Assembly (NCBI GenBank): GCA_964607495.1
Contig: CAZSKV010000751.1
Location: forward strand, 1 to 30,460
Reading direction: 5' to 3'
DNA: 30,460 nucleotides
Origin: an uncultured candidatus Brocadiaceae bacterium
Lineage (GTDB): Bacteria > Planctomycetota > UBA1135 > UBA2386
The position numbers and the translations under genes are program-made. Positions within the stretch are counted from its first letter, which is position 1. Each line of letters opens with the position of its first letter. This document shows, in pieces, positions 6,104 to 30,460 of this stretch. A model generated the notes under the pieces. The model had not been told where the DNA came from and ran no database searches. It was given only the letters and a program-made list of their open reading frames with translations.

Positions 6104-6153
6104 GGTTAGGCGCGAATGCCGCCGGGATCGTATCGACCACCGCCGCGGAACGA
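6027..6153. repeat. 127-bp direct repeat, copy 2
   Basis: Matches 2251-2377 with 5 mismatches. It contains ATG 6103(-) and the ATG 6116(+) of the first YfhO-type gene. Confidence 0.97.
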
Positions 6154-8656: not shown

Positions 8657-11238
8657 GGCACTTGCCGCGGCACTCGCTGCTCTGCCTGCTCGCGCTCGCG
8701 CTCGCGCCGCTGCTGCTCTTCGGCCCCTGCGTGGTCGGCGCGCGCAGCTACGTGCCGTTCGACCTCGCGCAGTGGCCGCCGATCGCGACGCAGCTCCAGC
8801 CCGAGCAGCTCGCGGCGATCACGGCCGGTCAGAACTCCGACGTCAGCGAAGTGCCGTTCACGTTCCTGCCCGAGCTGGTGTTCGCGAACCAGCAGTTGCA
8901 GCAGGGGCGCCTGCCGGAGTGGAACCCGTTCGCGCGCGCCGGCGCCCCCCTGCTCGCGACCTCGGTCGTCGGCCTGCTCTATCCGCCGAACTGGCTGTTC
9001 CTGCTGACGGGCAACCCGCTGCGCGGCCTCGCGTTCGGCGCCTGGTTCGCGCTCGCCGCGGCCGGGCTGCTGACCTTCGGACTCCTGCGCCGCCTCGGCC
9101 ACGTCCCCGCGATCGCGCTCTTCGGTGGCCTCGCGTTCCAGCTCTCGGCGACCCTGAGTGCGAACGCGCACTTCTACCAGCGCCTCAATGCCCTGGTGTG
9201 GCTGCCCGGCATGCTCTGGGCGATCGCGGCGATCGCGCGCGGCAACCACCGTGGCCGCATCGGCCTCGCGCTCGCGACCGGCCTGACCTGGACCGCGGGT
9301 TTCGCCCCCTACGCGGCGCCGGCCACCGGCGTCGCCGGACTCTTCGCGCTGCAGCAGATGCTGCAGACCGCGCGCTGGGACGGGCTCGCCGGCGCCGCGC
9401 GCACGGCGCGCGCGTGCGCGCTGGGGTTCCTGCTCGGCTTCGGCCTCGCGGCCGTGCAGCTGCTGCCGATGTTCGCGTTCTTCCCTGAGTCGAACCGCGA
9501 TCCGCACCCCAGCCTCGACGCGATCGCGAACCAGGCCTTCGATCCCCTCGGTGTGCTCGGCTACCTGCTGCCCGACGTGTTCGGCCACTCGACCGCCACC
9601 CAGGGTCTGCCGTACGAGAAGTCGCCCCTGGTCTGGTGGCTGTTCTCCCGCGCGAGCTGGGTCGACGGCAGACCCTTCACGCCGAACTACAACCTGATCG
9701 AGTACGCGGTGTTCCCCGGCACGCTCGTGCTCGTGCTCGCATGGCTCGGCTGCTGGGTGCGCGGCGCCCGCGACCGGCTCTTCGCCGCCGGCACCTGGCT
9801 GCTGCTGCTCGTGCTCGCGAGCGGTAGCGCGCTCGTGGCGCCGCTCTTCCAGCTGCCCGGCTTCGCGAGCCTGTCGCCGATGCGCTGCGTCGGCCCGGCC
9901 GCCATGCTGGTCGTGCTGCTCGCCGCGCGCGGGCTGGCGCCCGGCCCGCGCCAGCTCGCACCGCAGCTGGTGCGCGGCACCGGCCTGCTGGCCCTCGGCC
10001 TGGGGGCACTCTGCCTGCTGGGCGGGTGGTGGCTCACGCGCGCCGAGCCGCGCGAACTGCTCGCGCGGATCGCCCCGGCGATCGCCGCGCACTACCTGCC
10101 CCGCCTGCCGTCGGCGTCGCCTGCCGAGGTCATGCGCCTGCTCGAACCCTTCGCGGCGGCCGGCCACGAGCGGCTGGTCGGCGGCCTGATCCGTGGCGCC
10201 ATGGGACTCTGGCTGGCCGCGGTCTGGTTGCTGCTCGCCGCCCGCGCCGCCGGCGTGCCGTTGCGGCACAAGCTGCTGCTCGCCTACGCAATCGGCGCGA
10301 CCGTGGCCGAACTGGTCGCCTACGGCGCGCCACTCAACCACGGCCGCATGCTGCACGAACCGCGCGACACGCCCGTGCACGCGTTCCTGCGCGCCGAGCG
10401 CGACGCCAGTCGCGAGCGCGGCGGGGTGACCGTGGCGCGCGCCGGCCAGACGCTCGAGGACGGTGTGCCGCGCGCGGTCCTGCCGCTGCAGCTGCCGCCC
10501 TGCACGCTGGTGCCCGAGGGCATCCGCGACCTCAACATCTACACCTTCGTCGACGGCAAGTCGCATCGCCTCTTCGAGCGCCTCTATGGCGCGGCGCACA
10601 TGGTGCGCACCTACTGGCCGCTGGCACTCCTCGACGACGAGCGGCTCGCGCTGCCGCTCTTCGATCTCTTCGGCCTGCGCTTCCTGCTCGCCACCCAGCC
10701 CTTGCTGCACGCCGGCCGCAAGGTCGGTCCCACCTGGAAGGGGCCCGGCGGCGAGTTCTTTGTCTACGAGCGCCCGCGCGCGCTGCCGCGCGCGTTCGTG
10801 GTCGGCGACTTCAGGGAGCTCCCCGACGAGACGGCGGTCGTCGAGGCCATGGTGCGCAGCGACTTCGCGCCCGACCGCGTGGCCCTGCTGCTGCCTGCCG
10901 ACCAGCGGCGCATCGCCGACCACGCGATCTGGCCGGACGCCGGAAAGCGCAAGGTGCGCTTCACGCTCGACACGAACAACCACATCCACCTGCAGGTCGA
11001 CGCCGGCCCTCCCGGGCTGCTCGTACTCGCCGACGCGTACTTCTCCGGCTGGAGCGCGACGGTGAACGACCTACCGGCACCCGTCGTGCGCGGCAACCTG
11101 TTCTGCCGGCTCGTGCCGATCCCCGAAGACGAGTGCCGCGTGCGCCTGCGCTACGCGACGCCGTGGTTGGGCCCGGGCCTCGGGATCAGCGTGCTGGCGC
11201 TGCTCGCGCTCCTGCTGCTCGGTCGCCGCCGGAGCTGA
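8653..11238 (+). CDS. YfhO-family (GT-C fold) membrane glycosyltransferase-like protein 2; 861 aa
   Basis: ATG 8653 overlaps the previous stop (ATGA), with RBS GAGGAG at 8641. Motifs [16 protein letters not shown]...[10 protein letters not shown] and C-terminal [31 protein letters not shown]......VRLRY plus a TM helix. Confidence 0.85.
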
Positions 11239-13950: not shown

Positions 13951-14543
13951 TGCGCGCGCTCGCGTTGGCCGCGGCGGCAGCCGCGGCGATGTTGACTTGC
14001 CAGTGCGGCACGGCAGGCGCCGCTCCCGCAGCGTCCGCACACAGTGCCAGCGCCTGGCGCACGGTCTATGCCGTGCTGCAGCACGCGCGCTGCAAGAACT
14101 GCCATCCGGCTGGCCGCGTGCCCTTGCAGGGCGATGACAGCCGCGTGCACGGCCAGAACGTGCAAGGCGGTCCGGACGGGAAGGGGCGCTTCGCGATGCG
14201 CTGCGTGAACTGCCACCTCGAAGCGAATGCGCCCGGACCGAACCAGCCGCCCGGCGCGCCGAACTGGCACCTGCCGGCCGCCGCGACGCCGCTGGTGTTC
14301 GAGGGCAGGAGCCCGGCCGAGCTCGCGCGCCAGCTCGCGGACCCGGAGCAGAACGGCGGGCGCACGATGGCGCAGTTGCTCGAGCACGTGAGCACGGACC
14401 CGCTCGTGCTCTGGGGCTGGAATCCCGGCGAAGGCCGGGCTCCGGTTCCCGTCCCGCACGCCGCGTTCGTGGCGGCGATGCGCGCCTGGATCGAGGGTGG
14501 GTGCAGGATTCCGGACGAGCCCGCGGCCGGCGGTCAGCGATAG
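13947..14543 (+). CDS. Exported di-heme c-type cytochrome, third gene of the ior operon; 198 aa
   Basis: ATGA-coupled to iorB, Ala-rich signal peptide, two CXXCH motifs (CKNCH, CVNCH), C-terminal [11 protein letters not shown]. Confidence 0.85.
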
Positions 14544-16402
14544 GCCGCGAGGTAGCCCTCGAGTTCCGCCTTCGCCGAGAAGTTCTCCCGCACGCGGCCG
14601 TGCCCCCCGGCGCGCAGCCTGGTCACGAGCGCCGAATCCCCGAGCACGCGCGCGATCGCCCGCGCGCCGCTCTCACGGGTCGCGTAGAGCAACCCGCTCT
14701 CGCCGTCGGTGATCACCGCTCTGGCTGCTGCCGTTTCGCGGGCCACCGCGGGGATGCCGAGGGCCAGCGCCTCGAGCAGTGCGTTCGACAAGCCCTCGCG
14801 CTCGCTCGCGTGCAACGAGACGGCAGCCGTCGCGAGGAGCTGCAGCGTCGCCTCGCGCGGCATGGCCCCGGCGTGGCGGGCCCAACTCCGCGCCGCGAAC
14901 CAGGGTGCAGGATCGAGGTTCGGGTCGAGCACGGGTCCGACCAGCACGTAGCGCAGGTCCGGCACCAGTTCCCGGGTCCGATCGACGAGGTGCAGGCACT
15001 CGGGGAAGCCCTTCTCGGCGCGGACTCCGGCGATCTGCACCAGCAGCGCGGGTGCCGGAGCGGGCACGAGTTCGGGCACGACGACGCCGTGCGGGACCAC
15101 GCGGATCCGACCCACAGCTCCGGGGGCGACCGCCTCGAGCCGCTGCCGCTGCGCATCCGTCAACACGGTGATCACGCGCGCACGCGCGATCGTCGCGAGC
15201 ACCGCGTCGCGGCCCGGGCCTGAGCCCTCGAGCTCGTCGAGATCGGTGCCGCGGAACGACAGGACCAGCGGCAGGCCGTGCGCCCCTGCGAGCGCGGCCC
15301 CGAGCGGACCGGCGCGCATGGCCTGGATCGCGTGCACGACGGCGATCCCCGCCGGCAGCTCGGGCGGGACCTGCGGCTGCTCCGCCGCGACCACCGGCGC
15401 GGGCACGTCGCAACCTTCCTGCAGCAGCGCATGGCGCAGCCGGGCCGCGGAGACGCTGTTGCCACGGTTGGCGTCGAGCGCGAAGGGCACCACGAGCTGC
15501 ACGGCCGGACGCCGTGGCGCCTTGCCGAGCGCCATCTCCAGGATCGCATTCGCGAACAGCCGGTCGCCACGGTCGCGCGGGTAGAGGCCGGGCGCGGAGT
15601 TGACCTCGGCGACCTGCACCGAGCCATCCTCGGCTTCGAGCAGATCGACGCTGCCGTGGCCGAGATCGCAGCTCGTGAGCGCCTGATCGGCCAGCGCACG
15701 CAGCGCGGCGTCACAGCGTGCCTCCTCCCAGGGTCCGCCGTAGCGCGGGTTGGTGCGGAACTCGTCGTGGCTCGCGAACAGCCGGTAGGCGCGCGCGTAG
15801 CCGCCGCGCACCAGGGCGATGGTCAGCGAGCACCGGTGGCGCACGTAGTGCTGCACCAGCAGGAGCTCCGCCGGCCGCAGCTGGTGCGCCTGGGTCAGCG
15901 CCGCGCGCAGCGCCGAGGCATCGGCGCACTTCTGCACGCCCATCCCGCCCCAGCCGAAGGGGTGCTTGAGCACGACCGGATAGCCGCCGATGCCCTCGAC
16001 TAGCGCTTCCAGATCCCCCGGCGGCAGTGGCCCGGCACGCAACGCGAACGACGCCGGCACCGGCAGGCCGGCCGCCGCGAACGCGGCGAAGCTCTGCACC
16101 TTGTCCTCGGCCAGCGCGACGCCCCGCGCCGACACCAGCGTCCGGAGGCCCGCGGCATCCAGCGCGCGCAGCGCACTCTCGACGGTCCACAGGTCGTGGC
16201 TGTCGCGGATGTCCGCGCGCGGCAGCACGACCTCGTCGGCGGCGAGGCCGAACACGCCCTTGCCCGGCACCAGGCGCAGCTGCGCGATCTCGACCACCCG
16301 CGCGCGGTACCCGAGCCAGCGCGCACAGGCGAGCAGCAGCTCGTTGCTCTTGGCATCGGCCGCATTGCCGTGCGGCGAGGAGTTGAGGATCGCGAGACGC
16401 AT
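14534..16402 (-). CDS. Fusion: N-terminal RimK/LysX-type ATP-grasp ligase plus C-terminal GT4 (GT-B) glycosyltransferase; 622 aa
   Basis: ATP-grasp: EDKVQSF...[38 protein letters not shown]...[10 protein letters not shown]4: [50 protein letters not shown]. One continuous frame. Start chosen at MRLAILNSS (16402). Confidence 0.85.
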
Positions 16403-16550
16403 GCGGCCTGCGTGCGGATCCAACAGCGCGCCATGGTGCTGCGGCAAGGCCTCGCTGCAGAAGCTGCGCGGCCGTTCGGCGCCAGTCGCGACGCCCTCGC
16501 CGGCGTCCGCTCGCGAGCTGGGTGCAGGCAGCGGGCAGGCACCCTGGGGG

Positions 16551-16578
16551 TTGCACCCTTCCAGAATAGGTCTAAGCT
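16551..16578 (+). promoter_or_regulatory. Putative sigma70-type promoter of the blaI-like operon
   Basis: TTGCAC (16551-56), 16 bp, TAAGCT (16573-78) in an AT-rich island; RBS AAAGGA at about 16610 before ATG 16626. Confidence 0.6.
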
Positions 16579-16596
16579 TAGTCAACTAAGCGTAGA
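16571..16596. promoter_or_regulatory. 26-bp palindromic operator, probable BlaI-family binding site
   Basis: TCTAAGCTTAGT-CA-ACTAAGCGTAGA: 12-bp arms with 11/12 complementarity and a 2-bp spacer. It overlaps the -10 element directly upstream of a BlaI/MecI/CopY repressor gene, a family known to autoregulate through such dyads. Confidence 0.8.
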
Positions 16597-16625
16597 GCAC
16601 CCAGGTACGAAAGGACGACTCACCG

Positions 16626-17036
16626 ATGCCAGGCAAGGAGCTCCCCGAACCGACCGAGCGCGAACTGCAGATCCTGAAGGTGCTCTGGGACCGCGGCGAA
16701 GCGAGCGTGCACGCGGTCTACCTGGCCCTGCGCGACGATCTCGGCATCGTGCAGAACACCGTGCAGGCGTTCCTGCGCACGATGGAGGCGAAGGGGCTCG
16801 TGACCCACCGCACGGTCGGCAGGACCTTTCTCTACCGGCCGCGGCTCGAACGCGAACATGCCGCGCGGCGCCGGGTCTCGAACGTGCTCGAGCGGGTATT
16901 CGACGGGGCGCTGGACGAGCTCGTCGCCCATGCGCTCTCCGTGCGCTCGCCGAGCGTGGAGGAACTGTCCCGCCTGCGCGCGATGATCGACGAGCTCGAG
17001 ACCGACGCACGCAGCGGCCGGAGGCCACGGCGATGA
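16626..17036 (+). CDS. BlaI/MecI/CopY family transcriptional repressor; 136 aa
   Basis: PTERELQILKVLWDRGEASV...NTVQAFLRTMEAKGLV.....GRTFLYRP...VLERVFDG, followed by a coupled M56 peptidase gene. Confidence 0.93.
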   Translation: MPGKELPEPTERELQILKVLWDRGEASVHAVYLALRDDLGIVQNTVQAFLRTMEAKGLVTHRTVGRTFLYRPRLEREHAARRRVSNVLERVFDGALDELVAHALSVRSPSVEELSRLRAMIDELETDARSGRRPRR

Positions 17037-18733
17037 GCGAGCTCCTGGCCGTGCTCGAGGCGGCTGCGCCCAGGGCGCTGCTCGGCAGCAGCCTGCTGCT
17101 CGGACTGGGCCTGCTGGTCGCCGGCTGCTGCAAGGAGCCCTTGCATCGCCAACGCGCCGCGGAGTGTGCGACCGCGAGCACGCTCGTATGGCTGCTGCTC
17201 GTGCTGTTGCCGCTGCCGGCCCCGCTGCCGGCCCAGGTCGCGCCGGCGGGACCGGCAGCACCTGCCGCGGCGAGGCCGGCGGAGAGGCGCTCCGCCGACC
17301 TCGCATGGCTCCTGCAGGCCCGCGAGGCCGAGCTCGCCGCGATCGGGGCGGAGCTGCCGCAGGCCCCCGCACCGGCTCCGAAACCGGCGCCGACGCCGAC
17401 TGACTGGATCCACCTGGGCGTCCGCGTCTGGCTCGCCGGCTGCGCCCTGGGCCTCGCCTGGCTCGGCCTCGGCGTGGTCGTGCTCGCGCGCCTGGTGCGC
17501 CATGCCAGACCCATGGCCGGCATGCCGCAGGTGCTGGTCAGCCGCCGCGCGCACCAGCCGTTCTGTTGCTGGTTCGGTCGCGACCGGATCGTGCTGCCTG
17601 CCGCGCTCTGCACCGCCGCGGCCGCCGAACGCCTGCAGGCCGTGCTGGACCACGAGCAGGCCCACCTCGCGCAGCGCGACCCGCGTGGCCGCGTGCTCTT
17701 CGCGCTGGCTCTGCCGCTGCTGGTCCTGCATCCCTGCTACTGGCTCTTGCGGCGCACTGCGTTCCGCTCTGCCGAGCTCGTGGCCGACGAGCTGGCAGCC
17801 ACCCGCACGAGCCGCGCGCGCTATGCGCGCGCGATGATCGATCTCGCCGCTGTGGCGACCAGCCGCACGCCCTGGCTGCTGCCCGCGACACCGGCATTCC
17901 GTGGCCGTTCCGAGTTCTACCGGAGGATGAAGATGTTGCTGCAGAGACAAGAGCGTCTGGTTGTCCGTTGTGCCCCGATCCGCCGTGCCGCCCACGCGGC
18001 CCTGGCCCTGCTCGCGCTCGCCGCCCTGACCGCGGGCACCAACGGGATGCGCGCCCAGGAGCAGGATCCAGCTCCGGCCGAAGCCCGGCATGCGCGCCTG
18101 GTGCAGGAACGCGACGCGCTGCAGGCGCAGATCGCGGAACTGCGCGCCGCGGTCGCGAAGCTGCAGCGCGAGCGCGAAGCGCAGGTCACGCATCGCCAGG
18201 CCGCCGCAGAGGCGGCGCAGGCCGCCGCGAAGCAGAAGGCGCTCGACGACCCTTTGCGCGCCGACGCCGCCCGCGCCGAGGCCAATCCGCTCGCGCAGCT
18301 GCTCCTCGCGCAGCGCGCCGCCGAGCGGAACAGGGGCCTGGCGGAGGTGATGGACAAGATCACGGGCGAACATCCGGCATACACCCAGGCCCGCGTGCAG
18401 GCCGCCGGATCCGACGTGCTCGGGCTGGTCACGCGCGCGATCGATCTGGACGGCGAGGTCACGCTCGCGAAGGAACGCCTGGGCCATCTCGAGGCCAGGG
18501 TCGCCGCCGGCGCCGCTTCCCAGGACGACGTGCTCGAGGCCAAGGTCCGGCTGAAGACCGCCACCAAGAAGCGGGATGTCGTGCGCACAGCGCTCGAGAC
18601 CGAGCAGAATGCCTGCGAGCACGAGATCCAGGCCGAGATGAAGCGCCTCGAGAAGGACCCGGAGTCCGCGGACGTGCGGGCTCGGCTGATCCGGCTCAAG
18701 GGCAAGCTGACCGCGATCCAGCAGGCCCGCTGA
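17033..18733 (+). CDS. M56 family (BlaR1/MecR1-like) metallopeptidase with a coiled-coil C-terminal region; 566 aa
   Basis: ATGA-coupled to the repressor. N-terminal TM helices, PFCCWFGRDRIVLP, HEXXH motif VLDHEQAHLAQRD, ELVADELA, RRMKMLL, then a TM/signal-like segment and an Ala/Gln/Glu-rich helical tail. Confidence 0.9.
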   Translation: MSELLAVLEAAAPRALLGSSLLLGLGLLVAGCCKEPLHRQRAAECATASTLVWLLLVLLPLPAPLPAQVAPAGPAAPAAARPAERRSADLAWLLQAREAELAAIGAELPQAPAPAPKPAPTPTDWIHLGVRVWLAGCALGLAWLGLGVVVLARLVRHARPMAGMPQVLVSRRAHQPFCCWFGRDRIVLPAALCTAAAAERLQAVLDHEQAHLAQRDPRGRVLFALALPLLVLHPCYWLLRRTAFRSAELVADELAATRTSRARYARAMIDLAAVATSRTPWLLPATPAFRGRSEFYRRMKMLLQRQERLVVRCAPIRRAAHAALALLALAALTAGTNGMRAQEQDPAPAEARHARLVQERDALQAQIAELRAAVAKLQREREAQVTHRQAAAEAAQAAAKQKALDDPLRADAARAEANPLAQLLLAQRAAERNRGLAEVMDKITGEHPAYTQARVQAAGSDVLGLVTRAIDLDGEVTLAKERLGHLEARVAAGAASQDDVLEAKVRLKTATKKRDVVRTALETEQNACEHEIQAEMKRLEKDPESADVRARLIRLKGKLTAIQQAR

Positions 18734-18763
18734 ACCCCGCGCCGCGCCGCCCGGGACCGCATC

Positions 18764-19192
18764 ATGGCCACGAAGCGGAAGCCACCCACGAAGCCGTCGG
18801 GTCCGCAGGAGGTCGCCGCGTTCCTCGCGCGGCTCGACCATCCGCTGCGGCCGACCTTGGAGGCGGTGCGGGCGCTGGTGCTCGGCGTCGACCGGGGGAT
18901 CACCGAGCACATCAAGTGGAACGCGCCGAGCTTCTGCATCGACGGCGAGGACCGCGTGACCTGCCACCTGCACCGCAAGCGCTACCTCCTGATCGTGTTC
19001 CACAAGGGGGCGAAGGCGAAGGAGAGGCACGGGGGCGGACCCTTCTTCACGGACGACACCGGCCTCCTGCAGTGGCTCTCGGACGACCGGGCGATCGTCA
19101 CGCTGCACAGCCGCGACGAGTTCGCGGCGAAGCAGGCCGCGCTGCGGAAGGTCGTGAAGACCTGGATCTCGCGGACGCGTGGGCGCAGCTGA
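18764..19192 (+). CDS. DUF1801 (YdhG-like) domain protein; 142 aa
   Basis: VAAFLARLDHPLR....AVRALV....ITEHIKWNAPSF pattern. Confidence 0.8.
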   Translation: MATKRKPPTKPSGPQEVAAFLARLDHPLRPTLEAVRALVLGVDRGITEHIKWNAPSFCIDGEDRVTCHLHRKRYLLIVFHKGAKAKERHGGGPFFTDDTGLLQWLSDDRAIVTLHSRDEFAAKQAALRKVVKTWISRTRGRS

Positions 19193-19230
19193 GGCCGTGA
19201 GCCCGGTCCTTCAGGCGCGCGCTGCTGCGG

Positions 19231-22163: not shown

Positions 22164-22598
22164 ATGCCGACCCAAGCCCTCCCCGAACGCCAGGCATTGG
22201 TCGCGGTGCTGCTCGCGCTGGCGATGCTGATCGTCGTCGTCGAACTCGTGCGCAAGCGCAAGCTGCGCGAGGAGTACTCGTTCCTGTGGGTCGGGACCGC
22301 GCTCGCACTGCTGGTGCTCGCGGTCTGGAGCGATTCGCTGACCTGGTTCCAGCAGCTGATCGGCGCAGCCGTGCCGACCTCGGCGTTGTTCTTCGGCGGA
22401 CTCGTGTTCCTGATGCTCGTCGCCCTGCAGTTCTCGGTCCGCATCTCCAAGGAGTCGTTCCGGCAGAAGACGATGGCACAGCGCACCGCCCTGCTCGAGC
22501 GCGAGGTCGACGAACTCCGCGCGCGGATCGACGAACTCGAGGCCGAGCGCAAGGGGCGCGCCGCTCCTCCCCGCCGCGAGGCCGGCAGTGCCTCCTGA
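22164..22598 (+). CDS. DUF2304 family membrane protein; 144 aa
   Basis: VVELVRKRKLREEYSFLW, 3 TM helices, FSVRIS...LAQR.ALLE coiled-coil tail. Typical position right after a GT2 gene. Confidence 0.85.
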   Translation: MPTQALPERQALVAVLLALAMLIVVVELVRKRKLREEYSFLWVGTALALLVLAVWSDSLTWFQQLIGAAVPTSALFFGGLVFLMLVALQFSVRISKESFRQKTMAQRTALLEREVDELRARIDELEAERKGRAAPPRREAGSAS

Positions 22599-23100
22599 TT
22601 TCGCGGCCTTGCTCGCCACCGAATTCCGGCGGCGGCTGCTCGGCGAATACGTACCGCGGATCCGCCACTGCGCAGGCCTGCTGAGCGAGAGCCAGGCCTG
22701 GCAGAAGCCGGCACCGGGCGGCAATTCGCTCGGCAACCTGCTGCTGCACCTCGAAGGCAACGTCCGCCAGTGGATCCTCGGCGAGATCGGCGGCGAGATC
22801 GGCGGCGAGATCGACGGGCGCGACCGGGCGGCCGAGTTCGCGGCCGTGGCCGCGACCGCGCCCGCGCCGATCCCGGCACTCCTGCTGCGCCTGGAGACGA
22901 CCGTGAGCCGGGCCTGCACGCTGGTGGACGGCCTGTCCGAAGCGCAACTGCGCACGCGGCAGGTGTTCCAAGGCCGTTACTCCGAGACCTGGTTCTCGGC
23001 GATCGTGCACGTGCTCGAACACTTCTCCGGGCACGCCGGGCAGATCTACTTCTGGACCAAGGCGCTGACCGGCAAGGACCTGAAGTTCTACGACCTATGA
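22588..23100 (+). CDS. DinB/DUF1572-family protein; 170 aa
   Basis: NSLGNLLLHLEGNVRQWI, RDRAAEF, HVLEHFSGHAGQI (DinB His triad). GTG start overlaps the DUF2304 gene end. Confidence 0.85.
   Translation: MPPDFAALLATEFRRRLLGEYVPRIRHCAGLLSESQAWQKPAPGGNSLGNLLLHLEGNVRQWILGEIGGEIGGEIDGRDRAAEFAAVAATAPAPIPALLLRLETTVSRACTLVDGLSEAQLRTRQVFQGRYSETWFSAIVHVLEHFSGHAGQIYFWTKALTGKDLKFYDL
22780..22815 (+). repeat. 3 x 12-bp in-frame tandem repeat (GGCGAGATCGGC x2 + GGCGAGATCGAC) encoding GEIG-GEIG-GEID
   Basis: Read directly from the sequence. Confidence 0.9.
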
Positions 23101-24629
23101 GCCTCGACCTGTCGTTTCTCGAGTCGCTGGGCATCACCCGCGAGCACTCGGCTGCATATGCCGGCACCTGGCTGAAGACGAGCGGCGCGCTCGTGACCGT
23201 GTCCACGCCGATCACCGGTGAGGTGATCGGCAGCGTGCGCGTCGCGACGGCCAAGGAGTACGAACAGGTCTCCGCGGCCGCGCATGCCGCGTTCCTGCGC
23301 TGGCGCGAGGTGCCGGCGCCGCGGCGCGGCGAGCTCGTGCGCCAGATCGGCAACCTGTTGCGCGAGCACAAGGACCAGCTCGGGCGGCTGGTGACGCTCG
23401 AGACCGGCAAGCTCCTCGAGGAGGGCAAGGGCGAGGTGCAGGAGTGCATCGACATCGCCGACTACGCGCTCGGGCTGTCGCGCCAACTCTTCGGCCTGAC
23501 GATCAAGTCGGAGCGGCCCAAGCACGCGATGCGCGAGACCTGGCACCCGCTGGGCACGGTCGGCGTGATCACCGCCTTCAATTTTCCGGTCGCCGTGTGG
23601 GCCTGGAACGCGATGCTCGCACTGGTCTGCGGCGACGCCGTGCTGTGGAAGCCGTCGCGGCGCACGCCGCTCTCGGCGATCGCGATCACGAAGCTCGCGG
23701 CGCGCGTGCTCGAGCCGCTGGGCTTCGGCGCGCTCGCCGCCATGGTGCTCGGCCCCGACGACACGGTCGGCGGCGCGCTGCTCGACGACCACCGCGTGCC
23801 CCTGGTCTCCGCCACCGGCAGCACCCGCGTCGGCCGTCTCGTCGCGCAGCGGGTCGGCGTGCGGCTCGGTCGCACGCTGCTCGAGCTCGGCGGCAACAAC
23901 GGGATCATCGTGCTCGACGACGCCGACCTCGACATGGCGACCCGCGCGATCGTGTTCGGCGCGGTCGGCACGGCCGGCCAGCGCTGCACGACGACGCGCC
24001 GCCTGCTCGTGCAGCAGGGCGTGGTCGAGCCGCTCACGGCGCGGCTCGTGCAGGCCTACGCGCAGGTGCGGATCGGCAACCCGCTCGAAGCGGGCACGCT
24101 CATGGGGCCGCTGATCGATGCCGCCGCGGTAACGAGCTACGAACGGGCGATCGCCGCGGCGCAGGCCGAAGGCGGCAAGGTGCTCTGCGGCGGGCGGCGC
24201 GCCCAGGTCGCGCCGGCCCTGCAACATGGCTTCTACGTCGAGCCGACGCTCGTGCGCAGCCAGCGCCAGTCGGCGATCGTCTGCGAGGAGACCTTCGCGC
24301 CGATCTGCTACCTGCTCGAGGTGCAGGATCTCGACGCCGCGCTCGCGCTGCACAACGCGGTGCCGCAAGGCCTGTCGTCGGCGATCTTCACGCTGAACGT
24401 GCGCGCGGCCGAGCGCTTCCTGGCCGAAGCCGGCTCCGATTGCGGGATCGCCAACGTGAACATCGGCACGTCGGGCGCCGAGATCGGCGGCGCGTTCGGC
24501 GGCGAGAAGGAGACCGGCGGCGGACGCGAGTCGGGCAGCGACGCGTGGAAGTCCTACATGCGCCGGCAGACCAGCACCGTGAACTGGGGCAGCGACCTGC
24601 CGCTCGCCCAGGGCATCCGGTTCGGGTGA
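23097..24629 (+). CDS. Aldehyde dehydrogenase, ALDH7/antiquitin-like (alpha-aminoadipic semialdehyde / P6C dehydrogenase type); 510 aa
   Basis: ATGA-coupled. EGKGEVQECIDIADYALGLSRQL, GVITAFNFPVAVWAWN, SATGST, LELGGNN, catalytic GTAGQRCTT, EETFAP, NIGTSGAEIGGAFGGEKETGGGRESGSDAWK.YMRRQT. Confidence 0.93.
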   Translation: MSLDLSFLESLGITREHSAAYAGTWLKTSGALVTVSTPITGEVIGSVRVATAKEYEQVSAAAHAAFLRWREVPAPRRGELVRQIGNLLREHKDQLGRLVTLETGKLLEEGKGEVQECIDIADYALGLSRQLFGLTIKSERPKHAMRETWHPLGTVGVITAFNFPVAVWAWNAMLALVCGDAVLWKPSRRTPLSAIAITKLAARVLEPLGFGALAAMVLGPDDTVGGALLDDHRVPLVSATGSTRVGRLVAQRVGVRLGRTLLELGGNNGIIVLDDADLDMATRAIVFGAVGTAGQRCTTTRRLLVQQGVVEPLTARLVQAYAQVRIGNPLEAGTLMGPLIDAAAVTSYERAIAAAQAEGGKVLCGGRRAQVAPALQHGFYVEPTLVRSQRQSAIVCEETFAPICYLLEVQDLDAALALHNAVPQGLSSAIFTLNVRAAERFLAEAGSDCGIANVNIGTSGAEIGGAFGGEKETGGGRESGSDAWKSYMRRQTSTVNWGSDLPLAQGIRFG

Positions 24630-24634
24630 CCGCC

Positions 24635-25264
24635 ATGCGCCTCGACCACCTGCTCGCCAACAACAAGGCGTGGGCCGCGCGTATCGAGCGCGAGCACCCG
24701 GGGTTCTTCGCCGGCCTCGTGGCCCAGCAGTCGCCGCAGTACCTGTGGATCGGCTGCTCCGACTCGCGCGTGCCCGCGAACCAGATCGTCGGCCTGCCGC
24801 CCGGTGAGCTCTTCGTGCACCGCAACGTCGCGAACGTGGTCAGCAACACCGACTTCAACGTGCTCTCGGTGCTGCAGTATGCGATCGAAGTGCTGAAGGT
24901 GCAGCACGTGATCGTCTGCGGCCACTACGGCTGCGGCGGCATCCGCGCCGCGCTCTCGAAGCAGACCTTCGGCCTGATCGACAACTGGCTGAGCGGCATC
25001 AAGGACATCTACGCCGCGCACCGCGGGCGCTTCGCGCAGATCGCGCAGGAGTCGGCCCGCACCGACCTGCTCTGCGAACTCAACGTCAAGAGCCAGGTCC
25101 GCCACGTCTGCCACACGACGATCGTGCAGAACGCCTGGCAGCGCGGGCAGCCGCTGCGCGTCCACGGCTGGGTCTACGACCTCGAGGACGGCTTGTTGCG
25201 GGACCTCGGCGTGACCACCGAGGGCCCGGAACAGCTGGCGGAGATCTATCGCTACGAGCAGTGA
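24635..25264 (+). CDS. can: Beta-class carbonic anhydrase; 209 aa
   Basis: QSPQYLWIGCSDSRVPA, GELFVHRNVANVV, VCGHYGCGGI, LCELNV, VHGWVYDLEDGLL. Confidence 0.95.
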   Translation: MRLDHLLANNKAWAARIEREHPGFFAGLVAQQSPQYLWIGCSDSRVPANQIVGLPPGELFVHRNVANVVSNTDFNVLSVLQYAIEVLKVQHVIVCGHYGCGGIRAALSKQTFGLIDNWLSGIKDIYAAHRGRFAQIAQESARTDLLCELNVKSQVRHVCHTTIVQNAWQRGQPLRVHGWVYDLEDGLLRDLGVTTEGPEQLAEIYRYEQ

Positions 25265-25270
25265 CCCGGC

Positions 25271-26179
25271 TCAGTAGCCGATCACCCACTCCACGCCGTT
25301 CGTCATCGACAGGTCCGGCAGCACGACCACGAAGGCTTGCATGTCGAACTGGAACGAGATCAGCGCCTTGTCGTTCGGGATCGGCAGGTTGATCGGCGTC
25401 GCGCCGACGGGCAGGGTGCCGGGCACCGGGATCGTCGCGAAGATCGGTGGCGCGACCAGCAGCGTGCCACCGAGGAAGGGCAGGCTGCCGCGCTGGCCGG
25501 CGAGCGCGAGCAACGCACCGCTGTTGACCGCATGCGACTGCGTGAGGGAGAGCGTCGCGGTCTGGCCGAAGATCGGCCGGGCCGTCGTGTTGAGGGTCGG
25601 CGCGGGCGCCGAGCCGGCTCCGAATCCAGTGCCATAGTTGATCGCGGACGACTGGCCCGCGACGAAGACCTCGACGCGCGCGATCGAGGCCGAGCCCTCC
25701 GACGAGTAGGCCGCGTTGCCGCCGGTCGTGACGATGTTGGTCTGCGTGAGGAATCGCATCAGGGTGATCGGATTGCCGAGCACGTTGCTCGCGTATGCGC
25801 CGGCGCCGTACGAGCTGCGCATGGTGGACGTGTCGCCACAGCCGCCGAGCACGCCGATGTAGTCACCGGCATTGAAGATCAGCGAGCAGGGGATCACGAC
25901 GTTGCTCGGCTGGCCGACCTTGTAGAAAACCTGCGTGCCGGAACCGGTCGCCGGGTAGGCCGGTGGCGGCGCGGTCATCTTGAAGACCTCGACGTTCTGC
26001 AGGCCGTGCTTCGTCTCGTCCGGGACCCGCAGGCCGGTCACGACGATCGCGACGGGGGTCTGGAAGTAGAACCCGCGCGTCGCGTTTGCCGACGAGAACG
26101 TGCTCGTGAAGTTGGGAAGCGGGATCTGGGCAACAACGGGGCTGACCAGGGTCAGCGCGAACAGGATGGGGATTCGCAT
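25271..26179 (-). CDS. Secreted beta-rich hypothetical protein with a distinctive C-terminal domain; 302 aa
   Basis: Signal peptide MRIPILFALTLVSPVVAQ, Thr/Ser/Gly-rich body, C-terminal block P.FGQTATLSL...LPIPNDKALI.FQFDMQA....SMTNGVEWVIGY. Confidence 0.85.
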   Translation of the reverse strand: MRIPILFALTLVSPVVAQIPLPNFTSTFSSANATRGFYFQTPVAIVVTGLRVPDETKHGLQNVEVFKMTAPPPAYPATGSGTQVFYKVGQPSNVVIPCSLIFNAGDYIGVLGGCGDTSTMRSSYGAGAYASNVLGNPITLMRFLTQTNIVTTGGNAAYSSEGSASIARVEVFVAGQSSAINYGTGFGAGSAPAPTLNTTARPIFGQTATLSLTQSHAVNSGALLALAGQRGSLPFLGGTLLVAPPIFATIPVPGTLPVGATPINLPIPNDKALISFQFDMQAFVVVLPDLSMTNGVEWVIGY

Positions 26180-26253
26180 GGGTGGTTCTGGGGACAAGGG
26201 AACAGACGAGAGACGCGGCATGGTCACGCCTGTCGGTCCATCTGTCACCCCCC

Positions 26254-27351
26254 CTACCGTTTCTGCAAGAGCTCGAGCAGCGCTGAATCGCCCGGTCGCA
26301 GATGCCAGAACAGGAGTTCGGGCCCGCTGCCGGCCCGTGTGAACATGTCCTGCCCTTCGGGAAACGCCGGCCGGACCGTCGTGAACCCGGCGTGTGCTGT
26401 CGGCCAGGGCAGGAGCAGCGCGCGCGGATCGCGCGCCTGCGGGGGTTTCCGCGCGTGCCGCAGCGACCACGGCCGTGTCGGCGCCTGGATCTCGCCGTCG
26501 ATCGCCGCGAGCTGGCGCGCGAGGCGCGCGCCGTTCTGGCGCTGGATCTCGTCCGGCACGCGCGCGCCGGTCTCCGGGACCAGGGCCGCAAGCTGGATCG
26601 CGACCACGAACGCGAGCACGAAGCGCAGCAGCAGGTCGCGTGGCGTGAGTCCCGCGCACGCGCGGTTCCAGCCGCGGATGCCGACCGCCGCGTAGCAGGC
26701 GAGGAGCGCGTAGAACGGCTCGAACCAGAGCAGGCCGAAGGGCGATGCCAGGGCCAGGACACAGCCCGGCAGCAGGCAGCGGCCGGGTCCACCGCGACCC
26801 GCTGCGAACCAGCCGACGAGCGCGAGGCCGAGCAGTCCCGCGAGCGGGACGAAGCAGAGATCGATCCAGGCCAGCTCGCCGCGCGGAATCCCGGGACGCG
26901 GCAGGCAGGCCGGGGCGATCAGCGCGAGCCCGATCGCCAGCACGAGCAGGGCGAGCGCCTTCCGCTCGGTCCAGAGGAACTCGGCCAGCAGCAGGCAGGT
27001 GCAGGCGAGGGCGCCGCCGCCGCAGAGGTCCCCGGAGGCCGGACGCTGTCCGAGGCTGGCGGCGAAGAGCCCGGCGGCGATCACGCCCGACGCCGGCCCG
27101 GTGACCGCCCCCGCGAGCCGTGAGAGCAGATAGCAGCTCGTGAGCGTCGCGGCGACGGAGAGCAGGCGCAGATCCGTGAACCCGGAGAAGAGCGACCAGG
27201 GCCAGACCACCGCCCAGAGCTCCTCGCGCACGTCGAGCGCGTCGGGGTAGACGTGCCGCTGCCAGGCCTGGAACAGGAAGCAGAGGCCGAGCGCGAGCGA
27301 ACCGGCGCTCGTCAGCCACAGCACGACCTGGCTCTCATACCTGGCCTTCAT
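26254..27351 (-). CDS. Polytopic membrane protein, possibly a degenerate ArnT/PMT-like (GT-C) protein; 365 aa
   Basis: About 8-9 hydrophobic helices. The segment LRLLSVAATLTSCYLLSRLAGAVTGPASGVIAAGLFAAS resembles the PMT/ArnT helix pair. Soluble C-terminal tail. Confidence 0.6.
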   Translation of the reverse strand: MKARYESQVVLWLTSAGSLALGLCFLFQAWQRHVYPDALDVREELWAVVWPWSLFSGFTDLRLLSVAATLTSCYLLSRLAGAVTGPASGVIAAGLFAASLGQRPASGDLCGGGALACTCLLLAEFLWTERKALALLVLAIGLALIAPACLPRPGIPRGELAWIDLCFVPLAGLLGLALVGWFAAGRGGPGRCLLPGCVLALASPFGLLWFEPFYALLACYAAVGIRGWNRACAGLTPRDLLLRFVLAFVVAIQLAALVPETGARVPDEIQRQNGARLARQLAAIDGEIQAPTRPWSLRHARKPPQARDPRALLLPWPTAHAGFTTVRPAFPEGQDMFTRAGSGPELLFWHLRPGDSALLELLQKR

Positions 27352-27381
27352 CGGTGGGCGCAGCTAACCTGCGTGCGCCTC

Positions 27382-28314
27382 GTGGTCAAAGAACTCTTTC
27401 GCGTCCAGGTGCCCGCGACGTGTGCCCATCTGGGGCCCGGCTATGCGGTGCTCGGCGTCGCCCTGAACCTGACGCTCGACGTGCGCGTGCACGAGAGCCA
27501 GCAGGAGGGTTACACGGTCGAAGTCGGCGGCTCGGGGCCGGCGGCCCGGCTCGATCCCCGCCACGATCCCCTGCTGCGAGGCTTCCATGCCGCGCTCGAG
27601 CTGACCAAGACCAAGCCTCCGCCGGGCCTGCGCTTCGTGACCGTGAACGACATCCCGCCGGCCGCCGGACTCGGCTCGGCGACGGCGCTCTACGCCGCCG
27701 GGCTCGCCGCCGGGGCCAAGCTCGCGCGGCGGCCGGTGACGGTCGACGAAGTGCTCGACCAGCTCGCGCGCCTGGGCGGCGATCCCGCGCATGGCGCCGC
27801 GGCGCTGCAGGGCGGGCTCGCCGCCGCGTGCATGGTGTCGGCACCCGACGAGCACGCGCGCTACCGGGCTTGCGGCTACCCGCTGCACTCTGCGTGGCGG
27901 TTCGTCGTGGCGTTGCCCGACGCGCATGTCGGCGCCGCCGACGCCCAGCGGATCCTGCCGGCGACGCTGCCACACGCCGTCGCGTCGCGCACGAGCGGGC
28001 GTCTGCTCGGACTGCTGCGCGCGCTGGCCGAGGGCAACGAAGAGCTCGCCGCGCGCTGTCTGCGCGACGAGGTGCACGTGCCGTTCCGGCGCAAGCTCGT
28101 GCCCGGCATGGAAGGGGCCCTGCAGGCCGCTCTGACCGCCGGCGCTTGCGGCAGCACGATCGCCGGGCACGGTCCCGGGATCGTCGCCTTGACCACGCAG
28201 GGCAAGGTCTGTCCGGCGATCGCCGTGGCGATGCAGCAGGCGTTCAGTGCAGCGGGCATCCAGGCGACGACCAGGACTTTGGAATCGACAACACGCGGCG
28301 CCTTGGCGCCGTGA
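27382..28314 (+). CDS. Homoserine kinase (ThrB)-like GHMP-family protein with substituted catalytic motifs; about 310 aa
   Basis: VQVPATCAHLGPGYAVLGVAL, IPPAAGLGSATA, DEVHVPFRRKLVPG, IAGHGPG are colinear with ThrB. Start is GTG 27382 or 27373; a TAACCT -10 candidate lies at 27365-70. Confidence 0.8.
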   Translation: MVKELFRVQVPATCAHLGPGYAVLGVALNLTLDVRVHESQQEGYTVEVGGSGPAARLDPRHDPLLRGFHAALELTKTKPPPGLRFVTVNDIPPAAGLGSATALYAAGLAAGAKLARRPVTVDEVLDQLARLGGDPAHGAAALQGGLAAACMVSAPDEHARYRACGYPLHSAWRFVVALPDAHVGAADAQRILPATLPHAVASRTSGRLLGLLRALAEGNEELAARCLRDEVHVPFRRKLVPGMEGALQAALTAGACGSTIAGHGPGIVALTTQGKVCPAIAVAMQQAFSAAGIQATTRTLESTTRGALAP

Positions 28315-28320
28315 TCGACC

Positions 28321-29742
28321 ATGAACCGGGCATTCATCCTAGTAACTTTGTACGCGGTACTTCCTGCACAGGATTTCGGCCCGGTGCGCGAGCAGATCGT
28401 GGCGGGGATCGGAGCGGAACAGGCCCCCGCGTGCACGGTCACGGTCTGGCAGGATGGACGCATCGCCTGGGCCGAGGGCTTCGGCCTGGCGGACCGCGAG
28501 CGACGGATTCCGGCGACGGCCGACACGATCTACCGCCTGGCCTCGATCACCAAGCCGCTCGTCGCCACCGCGATCCTGCATCTGTGCGACGCGGGCAAGC
28601 TCGCGCTCGATACGAAGGTCAACACGCTGTTGCCAGGCAGCAAGCTGCAGCGTGACGAGGTGTCGGTCGCCCATCTGCTGAGCCACACGTCGGGGATGCC
28701 GGTGCACTACACGTTCTTCTATGCCGGCACGGCACCTTGGAGCCTCGACACGGCGATCGCGCGCTACGGGTTCTCACGGCGCGAGCCCGGCGCGAGGTTC
28801 GAGTACAGCAACCTCGGCTACGGCATCCTCGGACATCTGCTGGCGTTGCGCAGCGGCAGCGCCTGGGACGAATACTTGAACCGCGCCGTGTTCGCCCCGC
28901 TCGGCATGGCGCACACGAGTGCGAGAGTGGCCAAGGCGCACGAGCGCGACGCCGCCGTGCCCTATCGCAAGGACGCCGGCGGGCGCTTCCAGCCGCTGCC
29001 GGACTACGACTTCGACCACCCCGGCGCGTCGGCACTGTGGAGCACGGGGGCGGATCTGGTGCGCTTCGCGCGGATGTTCTGGGAGGACGGTGCGCCGGTG
29101 CTGCGCGCGGCCTCGGCGAAGGCCATGATCCAGCAGCAGGCGACGGCCGGGCCCAACGGCCGGGGCTACGGCTTCGGCTGGTTCATCGAAACCGTGCATG
29201 GCGAGCGTTGCTTCAGCCACACGGGCGGCATGCCGGGTGTGGCGACGCTGCTGCGCGCGTTCCCCGGCCGCAAGATCGCCTATGCCGTGCTCACGAACAC
29301 GAGCGATGGCGCGCTGCGCAACGCCGTGGACGCGCACCTCCAGCGGCGAATCCTGCAGGCGGAGTCGCGGCCGTCACGTCCGGCGAGCCGCCGCAGCGAG
29401 ACCGTGGCCAGCGAGCGGATGCACGGCTCCTGGGTCGGCCGCATCCACCACCACGAGGGGCCCGTCGAGGTGCGGGTGCAGTGCAGCCAGGACAAGGTGC
29501 GGCTCTGGACCGGCCCGGGCGCTGGCACCGAACGCGGCGTGAGCGAGTTCCGCATCCCGGCGCCCGAGGAGTGGGCGTTCTCCAGCGAGATGCTGCTCGG
29601 GAGCGTCCCCGGCTACTTCGGCGTCCCCAAGCTCGAGTTCGGACTCCAGCTCATCGGTGAGCGGATCGAGGGGATCTGCGTCGCCAAGGCCGAGGGCTAC
29701 TTCGCCCTGTCGCACCGCGTCGAGCTGACGCGGCGCGACTAG
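28321..29742 (+). CDS. Serine hydrolase, beta-lactamase class C/AmpC-like family, with signal-like N-terminus; 473 aa
   Basis: SXXK (YRLASITKP), LLSHTSG, PGARFEYSNLGYGILG (YXN), FSHTGGMPG (HTG). Confidence 0.9.
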   Translation: MNRAFILVTLYAVLPAQDFGPVREQIVAGIGAEQAPACTVTVWQDGRIAWAEGFGLADRERRIPATADTIYRLASITKPLVATAILHLCDAGKLALDTKVNTLLPGSKLQRDEVSVAHLLSHTSGMPVHYTFFYAGTAPWSLDTAIARYGFSRREPGARFEYSNLGYGILGHLLALRSGSAWDEYLNRAVFAPLGMAHTSARVAKAHERDAAVPYRKDAGGRFQPLPDYDFDHPGASALWSTGADLVRFARMFWEDGAPVLRAASAKAMIQQQATAGPNGRGYGFGWFIETVHGERCFSHTGGMPGVATLLRAFPGRKIAYAVLTNTSDGALRNAVDAHLQRRILQAESRPSRPASRRSETVASERMHGSWVGRIHHHEGPVEVRVQCSQDKVRLWTGPGAGTERGVSEFRIPAPEEWAFSSEMLLGSVPGYFGVPKLEFGLQLIGERIEGICVAKAEGYFALSHRVELTRRD

Positions 29743-29773: not shown

Positions 29774-30460
29774 CTAGTTGGTGATCTTGAACTGGTGGTC
29801 GTTCGAGATCGCGCCGATGCTCAGGGGCTTGCTGCCGTCGATCGTGAAACCGGCGGCGAAGACCTGCAGGCCGACGAGGCCCGCGTCGTTCGGGATGGGC
29901 AGCGACACCACGCCTTCGGGCTGTGCGGCCGTCAACATGCCGCCGAAGCCAGCGCCCAGCGAGGCGACGAGCAGCGGGTCGATCGAGAGCGGGATCGCGC
30001 GACCACCACCGAGCGGCACGCCGGCGTTGCCCAGCGAGAGGCCGAACACGTAGGGAGTCGGGTTGCCGCCGACGAGCGGCGCGGCCAGCGTCATCTTGTA
30101 GGTCGTGCCGATCTTCGGCGTGGTCGTCGGGTCGGCGAGCACGACCGAGTCGAAGAACGAGAAGTTGTCCATCTCGGCGGTGTTGTAGCCGTCACAGCCG
30201 ACCAGGCCGGAGTTGAGGGTCGTGGCCGCCGCGAAGGGACGCGCCGGCGTGCTGACCTCGTACACCCCGTCCTTGTTGCCATCGAGCTGGCCCCAGCAGG
30301 TCCGGCCCTTGACGATCAGCCGCACGCGCGCAGCGAGCGTGTTGATGCCCGTGGTGACCGCCGTGGCTCCACCCGGTCGCTCGTACATCCAGAGCGTGTT
30401 GTAGAAGCCGTTGCCGACCGAGCTGTTGTCCTGCAGCTTGATCATCACGAGGCCGTTCTC
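29774..30460 (-). CDS. 3' part of a probable secreted protein (5' end outside window) with a C-terminal domain like that of 25271-26179
   Basis: Frame is open to the window edge. Beta-sandwich-like segment (GCDGYNTAEMDNFSF) followed by PKIGTTYKMTL...SLPIPNDAGLVGLQVFAAGF...AISNDHQFKITN. Confidence 0.8.
   Translation of the reverse strand, partial: ENGLVMIKLQDNSSVGNGFYNTLWMYERPGGATAVTTGINTLAARVRLIVKGRTCWGQLDGNKDGVYEVSTPARPFAAATTLNSGLVGCDGYNTAEMDNFSFFDSVVLADPTTTPKIGTTYKMTLAAPLVGGNPTPYVFGLSLGNAGVPLGGGRAIPLSIDPLLVASLGAGFGGMLTAAQPEGVVSLPIPNDAGLVGLQVFAAGFTIDGSKPLSIGAISNDHQFKITN

Follow-up and report, generated by a model that had tools for sequence, protein, structure and literature searches.

The homoserine kinases (ThrB; TIGR00191; PDB 1FWK/1H72, 5WAT, 4P52, 6CYZ) are the closest described relatives of a GHMP-fold gene, here called the ThrB-like gene, in a 30,460-nucleotide stretch of DNA from an uncultured candidatus Brocadiaceae bacterium (contig CAZSKV010000751.1 of assembly GCA_964607495.1; "the window" below). 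From what Krishna and colleagues are said to have described in 2001, the residues in contact with homoserine are, in M. jannaschii numbering, Asn17, Asp23, Asn141 and Arg235, together with Thr183 and Arg187 of the lid. The L-threonine kinase PduX and other GHMP kinases combine a ThrB-like scaffold with a changed acceptor pocket. In the mammalian hydroxylysine route, hydroxylysine kinase (HYKK) is followed by a phospho-lyase and then by ALDH7A1. Beta-RFAP synthase and ForT, whose GHMP fold is nearest to that of homoserine kinase, have given up ATP-dependent phosphorylation and provide a precedent for radical functional change. According to a paper on the T. brucei homoserine kinase (PMC4460637), there is strict conservation, from archaea through to eukaryotes, of the catalytic His and of the five side chains that contact homoserine.

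The ThrB-like gene shares with ThrB the two-domain GHMP fold, a similar length, the glycines of motif II, motif III, the carboxylate-binding Arg235 and the D..H.P.R motif. Unlike ThrB, it belongs to a family that scores below the equivalog cut-off of the thrB model, has lost Asp23, the second Ser of the phosphate-binding loop (P-loop), Glu130, His138, Asp140 and Asn141, and carries an invariant D-x-R-H-D loop. The family also differs from ThrB in having an ALDH7-type dehydrogenase as genomic partner and no thr-gene context at the loci inspected. Measured against the strict conservation of homoserine contacts and catalytic His stated for ThrB (PMC4460637), the family is a clear outlier.

The other described systems are more distant. 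Compared with PduX, the family loci show no cobalamin or pdu context, and NCBIfam gave no match beyond thrB and, weakly, IspE and mevalonate- or shikimate-kinase models. Among mevalonate kinase, galactokinase and IspE, the last is the next-best structural match, but the family has a His in place of the catalytic Asp, shows no recognized counterpart of the Lys partner of these kinases and is far closer to ThrB in sequence. Structural similarity to ForT is lower still, and no model of the beta-RFAP synthase/ForT type matched. The hydroxylysine route offers a functional analogy only: it likewise places a small-molecule kinase upstream of the same type of dehydrogenase, but HYKK has an unrelated fold (aminoglycoside-phosphotransferase type), and no phospho-lyase gene was found near the family loci. 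We therefore regard the family, on present sequence evidence, as a divergent, clade-specific ThrB-like subfamily with a remodeled active site and a conserved ALDH7 partner, whose function is predicted only and which probably does a new job.

Identity and integrity of the ThrB-like gene

The open reading frame (ORF) runs unbroken from a GTG start at 27382 to a TGA stop at 28312-28314. An alternative in-frame GTG at 27373 would give a protein of 313 amino acids, in agreement with a 313-residue database protein (P0001) that is 98% identical. The GC content at third codon positions (GC3) is 0.83, close to that of the adjoining genes. 31-mers of the gene were present in more than 20 metagenomes from activated sludge, bioreactors and wastewater. 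In addition, short contigs of three sludge metatranscriptome runs spanned positions 27386-27826 with 0-1 mismatch, which speaks to presence only and not to level, DNA carry-over being possible. Because the gene recurs in many independent sludge and bioreactor metagenomes and in metatranscriptome contigs, we dismiss sequencing error as the source of its unusual residues.

Pfam recognized both halves of the protein, GHMP_kinases_N (PF00288, 35 bits) and GHMP_kinases_C (PF08544, 23.2 bits), each above its cut-off. The top NCBIfam model was thrB (TIGR00191), with 154.6 bits against a curated equivalog cut-off of 168.25. Other NCBIfam matches were weak (IspE, mevalonate-kinase or shikimate-kinase models), and RFAP-synthase models gave no NCBIfam match at E <= 1. 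HMMER searches of the PDB found that the closest solved relatives were all homoserine kinases, with 5wat first (E = 3.7e-25). An AlphaFold2 model built from 43 homologs had a predicted local distance difference test score (pLDDT) of 89 and a predicted template-modeling score (pTM) of 0.88; low confidence was limited to residues 51-53 and a lid segment around 181-200. Foldseek aligned this model to the ThrB structures 4p52 and 5wat with a template-modeling (TM) score of 0.84, to IspE with 0.73, to mevalonate kinase and galactokinase with about 0.7, and to ForT with 0.68. An earlier reading of the letters without database searches (the sequence-only reading) had proposed a homoserine-kinase fold in an intact, full-length frame that was not in simple decay, and it was right on both counts: the ORF is intact, a 98%-identical copy exists, and 112 homologs were collected.

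The low score on the thrB model is a property of the whole family. None of 43 family members reached the E-value that corresponds to the TIGR00191 cut-off (range 120-161 bits), whereas the canonical sisters described below exceeded it (P0062, 195.6 bits; P0088, 203.3 bits; P0060, 177.8 bits). No dedicated Pfam or NCBIfam model matches the family. In the literature we found nothing relevant on a ThrB-like family in Planctomycetota, on a link between L-piperideine-6-carboxylate dehydrogenase and homoserine kinase, or on missing thrB or threonine auxotrophy in OM190.

Replacement of active-site residues

For a residue-by-residue comparison, 112 distinct family members were aligned with 353 canonical ThrBs, the M. 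jannaschii homoserine kinase and E. coli ThrB. The M. jannaschii sequence was checked against PDB 1fwk; the numbering of the paper equals the deposited numbering plus 4. Motifs were also compared in HMMER alignments to the solved ThrBs 5wat, 6cyz and 3hul. These alignments display the three changes that the sequence-only reading had listed, namely ANLGPGFD to AHLGPGYA, EGHPDN to GGDPAH and SGAGP to AGHGP. Altogether, eight columns with 96-100% conservation in the 353 ThrBs carry other residues in the 112 family members, and these new residues in turn reach 83-100% conservation (motif positions in Table 1).

The changes affect residues for substrate, metal and catalysis alike. Canonical ThrBs have Asn in 352 of 353 sequences at position 17, whereas the family has Asn in 65 and His in 45 of its 112 members, with His in the window protein. 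Asp23 (352/353) has given way to Gly in 101 and Ala in 6 members, the window protein having Ala. In the next motif, Glu130 (349/353) is replaced by Gly (109/112), His138 (352/353) by Asp (93) or Thr (17), Asp140 (340/353) by Ala (100/112) and Asn141 (344/353) by His without exception (112/112). The lid is less uniform. Thr183, present in every canonical sequence, is Thr in 84 and Ala in 14 members (Ala in the window protein), and the column of Arg187 (351/353) is variable (Lys 47, Arg 29, His 13, Val 10, Gln 7; Gln in the window protein), with a nearby Arg, R190, found in 111 of 112. Arg235 is universal in both groups (353/353 and 112/112) and is the only one of the six homoserine-contact residues (Asn17, Asp23, Asn141, Thr183, Arg187, Arg235) that the family has kept fully. 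Both the Mg2+ ligand Glu130 and the catalytic His138 (His139 in E. coli) are replaced.

The phosphate-binding loop is kept in part. Of the GHMP motif II consensus P-x-x-x-G-L-G-S-S-A-A, P92, G96, L97 and G98 are conserved, G96 and G98 invariantly, and S/T99 is present. The sequence-only reading had called this ATP loop intact, which is correct for GLGS but not for the second Ser of GLGSS: this residue is Ser in 353 of 353 canonical sequences, Ile (42), Asn (29), Val (10), Ser (8) or Thr (8) in the family, and Ala in the window protein. The D..H.P.R motif, also taken as retained, is indeed present as DEVHVPFR, and its His232 is found in 110 of 112 members. In motif III, for which the GHMP consensus is [ST]-G-[SA]-G-P, the His of AGHGP (H263) occurs in 87 of 112. 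Residues 134 (27781-27783) and 263 (28168-28170) co-vary, with H263 in 85 of the 93 members with D134 and A263 in all 17 members with T134. This suggests a direct contact of the Asp134-His263 pair, joining the GGDPAH helix with the motif III loop.

The three new His residues had been proposed to form a metal or alternative catalytic site. We rejected a three-histidine metal site, as just one of the three, H137, is invariant (112/112); H263 co-varies with D134 as described, and H16 occurs in 45 of 112. The sequence-only reading had missed a further family-specific element, the D-P-R-H-D loop with H61. D58, R60 and H61 are present in all 112 members and D62 in 109, whereas canonical sequences have Arg in 1% at the R60 column and His in 3% at the H61 column. 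The list of family invariants includes D58, R60, H61, D62, G132, H137, W172, R190, R203 and E230.

Because the same replacements are conserved in 112 relatives from metagenome-assembled genomes (MAGs) of Planctomycetota, they are not drift; the check on homologs that the sequence-only reading had called for thus shows that they are not peculiar to the window sequence. The family is ThrB-derived, has the GHMP fold and is under purifying selection. It has a different conserved set of residues at the positions for substrate amine, metal and reaction centre, and it keeps Arg236 (= Arg235), which anchors the carboxylate, and the glycines of the phosphate-binding loop.

Table 1. Positions of the ThrB-like gene, its motifs and neighboring genes in the window, and of one canonical relative at another locus.
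Feature	Position	Strand	Remarks
ThrB-like GHMP-fold gene	27382-28314	+	310 aa; ORF and translation, Pfam, TIGR00191, AlphaFold2 model
Motif I ATCAHLGPGYAVL	27415-27453	+	H16 at the Asn17 position, A22 at the Asp23 position (M. jannaschii paper numbering)
Family-specific loop D58-P-R60-H61-D62	27553-27567	+	in place of the canonical '..N' (Asn62) nucleotide-side loop
Motif II phosphate-binding loop IPPAAGLGSATA	27652-27687	+	glycines kept, second Ser of GLGSS replaced
LGGDPAHG for lEGHpDNv	27772-27795	+	E130 to G132, H138 to D134, D140 to A136, N141 to H137
Lid-helix end and LP..LPH segment, QRILPATLPH	27946-27975	+	pLDDT 58-66, expected for a mobile lid
DEVHVPFR	28066-28089	+	Arg236 (= carboxylate-binding Arg235) and His232 kept
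Motif III AGHGP	28162-28176	+	G262, G264, P265 invariant; SGAGP in canonical ThrB
DinB_2/DUF1572-family gene	22414-23100	+	Pfam; in the upstream block of some lineages only
ALDH7-type L-piperideine-6-carboxylate/alpha-aminoadipate-semialdehyde dehydrogenase	23097-24629	+	2.7 kb upstream of the ThrB-like gene in the window
Window-specific insertion between dehydrogenase and ThrB-like gene	24650-27351		none of its three genes in the 56 other loci
Beta-carbonic anhydrase	24650-25264	+	Pfam Pro_CA
Unannotated gene, product maybe secreted	25271-26230	-	no Pfam match
Unannotated multi-pass membrane protein gene	26254-27351	-	no Pfam match
Beta-lactamase-family serine hydrolase	28321-29742	+	Pfam Beta-lactamase; begins 7 nt past the ThrB-like stop
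P0062 canonical-motif ThrB	locus L066, 10001-10942		member of the closest sister group

Extent and origin of the family

A word-indexed protein search returned 55 homologs with 40-60% identity and the family motifs, and those with a named source came from Planctomycetota MAGs. When a single genome of each GTDB species was scanned, 51 loci emerged; every one of them carries the family motifs and lies in a MAG that was labeled Planctomycetota or obviously mislabeled. An exhaustive profile search of 1.84 billion representative sequences revealed a score gap, with full-length family members at 247-474 bits and canonical ThrBs forming a plateau from about 202 bits downwards. Of the sequences with intermediate scores, P0060 and P0062 have canonical ThrB motifs, as does P0088. 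One family-bearing MAG carried the label CL500-15, the name of a clade that has been assigned to the uncultured class OM190 (PMC5607371).

In a neighbor-joining tree of 123 sequences, the family was monophyletic, with a stem branch about six times as long as the median internal branch. Its sister group consisted of the canonical-motif ThrBs P0088, P0062 and P0060. All three derive from MAGs, and P0088 as well as close relatives of P0062 are labeled Planctomycetota. The sisters already deviate in the motif around Asn141, which reads EGHPEN in P0060 (D140E) and EGHREA in the P0062 lineage (D140E, N141A), and sequences of this type may represent intermediates of the remodeling. The genome of P0062 also has an ortholog of the family's ALDH7-type dehydrogenase, on the opposite strand and 6 kb from thrB. 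In a tree of the dehydrogenases, this copy branched outside those of all family-bearing genomes. The canonical Planctomycetota sisters, the proximity of thrB and dehydrogenase in the P0062 genome and the position of that dehydrogenase outside the family-bearing ones fit a transition that happened just once: in one lineage of Planctomycetota, the pocket of the thrB-type gene would have been remodeled in concert, and the new pocket has stayed conserved since.

Genomic context and the dehydrogenase partner

The dehydrogenase scored 762.9 bits on the NCBIfam model NF050084 (cut-off 730). Its top PDB matches were Pcd (6rtr), antiquitin and ALDH7A1 with 520-611 bits, and the next class of aldehyde dehydrogenases followed at 244. 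In 31 of 57 loci, an ortholog of this enzyme (60-71% identity) immediately precedes the ThrB-like gene on the same strand, the two being 3-170 bp apart. In 11 further loci, including the window, an ortholog is found 0.8-4.5 kb away. The pairing is not obligatory. De novo clustering of neighboring ORFs identified the ALDH7 dehydrogenase as the only widespread neighbor of the ThrB-like gene and revealed no conserved downstream neighbor.

Other neighbors were restricted to particular lineages (QueA, GT2, DUF2304, DinB, a Tricorn-like protein, ThiE, a Kef-type antiporter). In some lineages the dehydrogenase belongs to a larger block of QueA, GT2, DUF2304 and DinB. Among adjacent pairs with enough upstream sequence, DinB stood beside the dehydrogenase in 11 and was absent in 15. 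Since the pair persists where the DinB/GT2 block is absent, the pairing of dehydrogenase and ThrB-like gene exceeds what inertia of the block would produce. In the window, the stop codon of the DinB_2 gene overlaps the start codon of the dehydrogenase (ATGA, 23097-23100), which suggests that these two genes are translationally coupled.

The sequence-only reading had remarked that no thrA or thrC was nearby. This held on a larger scale, as tblastn with E. coli ThrA and ThrC detected neither thrA/hom nor thrC, whether in the window itself or across the related loci (834 kb). With E. coli ThrB and five canonical ThrBs as queries, tblastn found no second ThrB-type gene in the 57 loci (834 kb). Likewise, no canonical ThrB was located on a family-bearing contig among the best 120 of about 8000 matches in searches with the canonical profile and the sister clade, a weak negative.

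Two features flanking the ThrB-like gene in the window deserve mention. The annotated start of the opposite-strand membrane protein gene (27351) is just 22-31 nucleotides from the start of the ThrB-like gene, depending on which GTG is used; one of the starts may be misplaced. Downstream, the serine hydrolase gene may be co-transcribed with the ThrB-like gene in the window, but it is not a conserved neighbor, being near the ThrB-like gene in only 2 of 57 loci. The hydrolase has weak similarity to class C, AmpH and D-aminopeptidase proteins, far under every cut-off.

In two distant family lineages, a divergently oriented His_biosynth (PF00977) gene takes the place of the dehydrogenase just upstream of the ThrB-like gene (9156-9881 in locus L008, 9184-9888 in L010). 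We rejected it as a partner because it was seen in only about three loci.

Predicted function and alternative readings

The reading that we favor, and to which we would give somewhat less than an even chance, is that of a kinase which descends from ThrB, acts on another acceptor and is linked to the ALDH7-type dehydrogenase. The enzyme would most likely no longer be a canonical homoserine kinase. It would probably still bind a nucleotide triphosphate via the glycine-rich loop and pass the phosphoryl group to a different acceptor. Replacement of Asp23, the ligand of the substrate alpha-ammonium group, by Gly or Ala would abolish that contact and enlarge the pocket. At the reaction center, the proposal starts from a Mg2+ ligand, Glu130, turned into Gly and a His138/Asp140/Asn141 triad turned into Asp/Ala/His. 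His137 would occupy what we take, from published structural comparisons, to be the site of the catalytic Asp in mevalonate kinase, galactokinase and IspE, and of Asn141 in ThrB. It might act as general base or as hydrogen-bond partner of the acceptor oxygen. The D-x-R-H-D loop, possibly together with Asp134, may take over the metal and substrate contacts of the lost acidic ligands, and the Asp134-His263 pair could serve as a structural contact of the helix to motif III.

Gene order suggests that the enzyme works with the ALDH7-type dehydrogenase, which directly precedes it in most genomes. Because this dehydrogenase adjoins upstream, we would look for the acceptor in lysine- or aminoadipate-related metabolism, presumably a carboxylate-bearing hydroxy compound that is longer than homoserine or differently substituted; 5-hydroxylysine and 6-hydroxynorleucine are guesses at examples. 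A bolder version holds that throughout an uncultured class-level lineage of Planctomycetota the sole GHMP-type thrB became an enzyme of new chemistry, with a His-based mechanism, relocated metal and substrate ligands and a two-gene unit with the aminoadipate-semialdehyde dehydrogenase, in an undescribed bacterial route for lysine, hydroxylysine or aminoadipate. We consider this version unlikely as a whole.

The sequence-only reading had left the choice between a pseudokinase and a GHMP kinase with a new substrate. The latter half is better supported, because the substitutions are conserved across 112 homologs and the family falls under the thrB cut-off while canonical sisters lie above it. A pseudokinase is unlikely, because the family shows no variation in the Gly-rich phosphate loop glycines, motif III glycines or R235 and its new polar residues are strongly constrained.

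Several observations weigh against a kinase with a new acceptor. The family looks like a positional descendant of thrB, and for this reason it is a live possibility that the ThrB-like gene is the genome's only ThrB, a point that the sequence-only reading had raised against its own proposal. Given this positional descent and the lack of a second ThrB-type gene in 834 kb or, among the best 120 of about 8000 matches, on large family-bearing contigs, the organisms may depend on the ThrB-like gene for threonine synthesis. The loss of Glu130 together with the P-loop Ser raises the possibility that the protein is not a kinase at all. No PLP (pyridoxal phosphate) enzyme, phospho-lyase, lysine dehydrogenase or aminotransferase was present in any family neighborhood examined. 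Finally, the link to the dehydrogenase is broken or interrupted in about one third of the loci, including the window, where 2.7 kb with opposite-strand genes intervene.

The most serious competitor, possible if somewhat doubtful in our view, is that the protein is still the homoserine kinase of its lineage, with a rewired site in which Asp134 or the D-x-R-H-D loop supplies the amino-group and Mg2+ contacts and His137 assumes the role of His138. ThrB models are by far the best-scoring matches; R235, most T183, H198 and H232 are kept; and the sister group consists of canonical-motif ThrBs of related Planctomycetota, which already tolerate D140E and N141A. The sister genome with thrB within 6 kb of the same dehydrogenase, itself branching outside the family-bearing ones, fits an orthologous transition. 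A single copy per locus with no second ThrB-type gene in 834 kb, and the lack of canonical ThrB on family-bearing contigs among the best 120 of about 8000 matches, would also be expected. Yet the 353 ThrBs show 97-100% conservation (strict according to PMC4460637) of Asp23, Glu130, His138, Asn141 and the P-loop Ser, and swapping all five with retention of the same reaction would be unprecedented. Moreover, the compensating Asp134 is not universal, being Thr in 17 members; the 834 kb of loci contain no thr-pathway context; and only the remodeled family shows the tight, operon-like association with a dehydrogenase of lysine catabolism.

We rate it as quite improbable that the protein is no longer a kinase, being instead a ligand-binding or regulatory pseudoenzyme or a GHMP enzyme acting on another phosphorylated co-substrate, as do beta-RFAP synthase and ForT with phosphoribosyl pyrophosphate (PRPP). 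Such PRPP transferases of the GHMP fold, nearest in structure to homoserine kinases, do exist, and ForT was among the matches of the model; the Gly at Glu130 in 109 of 112 members and the loss of the otherwise universal second Ser of GLGSS point in the same direction. Set against this are the lack of an NCBIfam match to RFAP-synthase models, the TM score of 0.84 for ThrB versus 0.68 for ForT, and the invariance of motif III, of the Arg anchor and of the glycines in the phosphate loop. Invariant, too, are the polar residues of the new pocket, which suggests catalysis over loss of function. The unusual residues themselves are all that speaks for decay of a thrB pseudogene, for an error of sequencing or assembly, or for neutral drift of a single sequence, and we regard these explanations as practically negligible: the frame is intact, a 98%-identical copy exists, 112 homologs share the substitutions, more than 20 independent metagenomes as well as metatranscriptome contigs contain the gene, and its GC3 of 0.83 is like that of its neighbors.

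If the reading as a kinase with a new acceptor is true, one more member joins the short list of GHMP specificities, and a near-universally conserved pocket would have been re-tooled in one series of steps, of which partly changed sisters (D140E, N141A) are extant. The conserved ALDH7-type pairing gives a concrete, testable lead to a pathway step. If thrB was indeed converted, threonine would have to be made in this lineage via an unrecognized or non-orthologous homoserine kinase. If the protein is still a homoserine kinase, then Asp23, Glu130, His138 and Asn141 would no longer be indispensable for homoserine phosphorylation.

The matter also affects annotation. Family members (P0033, P0018, P0045, P0050, P0364) are named inconsistently, as 'homoserine kinase' by the Joint Genome Institute (JGI) and in some NCBI records and as 'hypothetical protein' in others, and all score below the TIGR00191 cut-off. 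Because automatic annotation is split in this way, metabolic reconstructions of this uncultured lineage of Planctomycetota may err on threonine biosynthesis in either direction, crediting it or denying it wrongly.

Other genes of the window

Elsewhere in the window, a BlaI/Penicillinase_R-type repressor is encoded at 16596-17036. A BlaR1-like sensor might be expected to follow it, but the frames tried of the long ORFs at about 17000-19200 gave no Pfam match. Two large tandem membrane proteins (6116-8656 and 8368-11238) have weak matches to the YfhO family; their ORFs overlap, and their starts are imprecise.

The unannotated, putatively secreted gene products of 25271-26230 and 29774-30448, both on the minus strand, have a short C-terminal motif in common (LPIPND..L, 23 residues, E = 0.002), which may be a sorting or anchoring signal or due to chance. 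Paralogy of the two proteins was not supported beyond these 23 residues. The minus strand at 14534-16585 encodes a fusion protein of 683 amino acids, which joins a RimK-like ATP-grasp domain with a group-1 glycosyltransferase domain.

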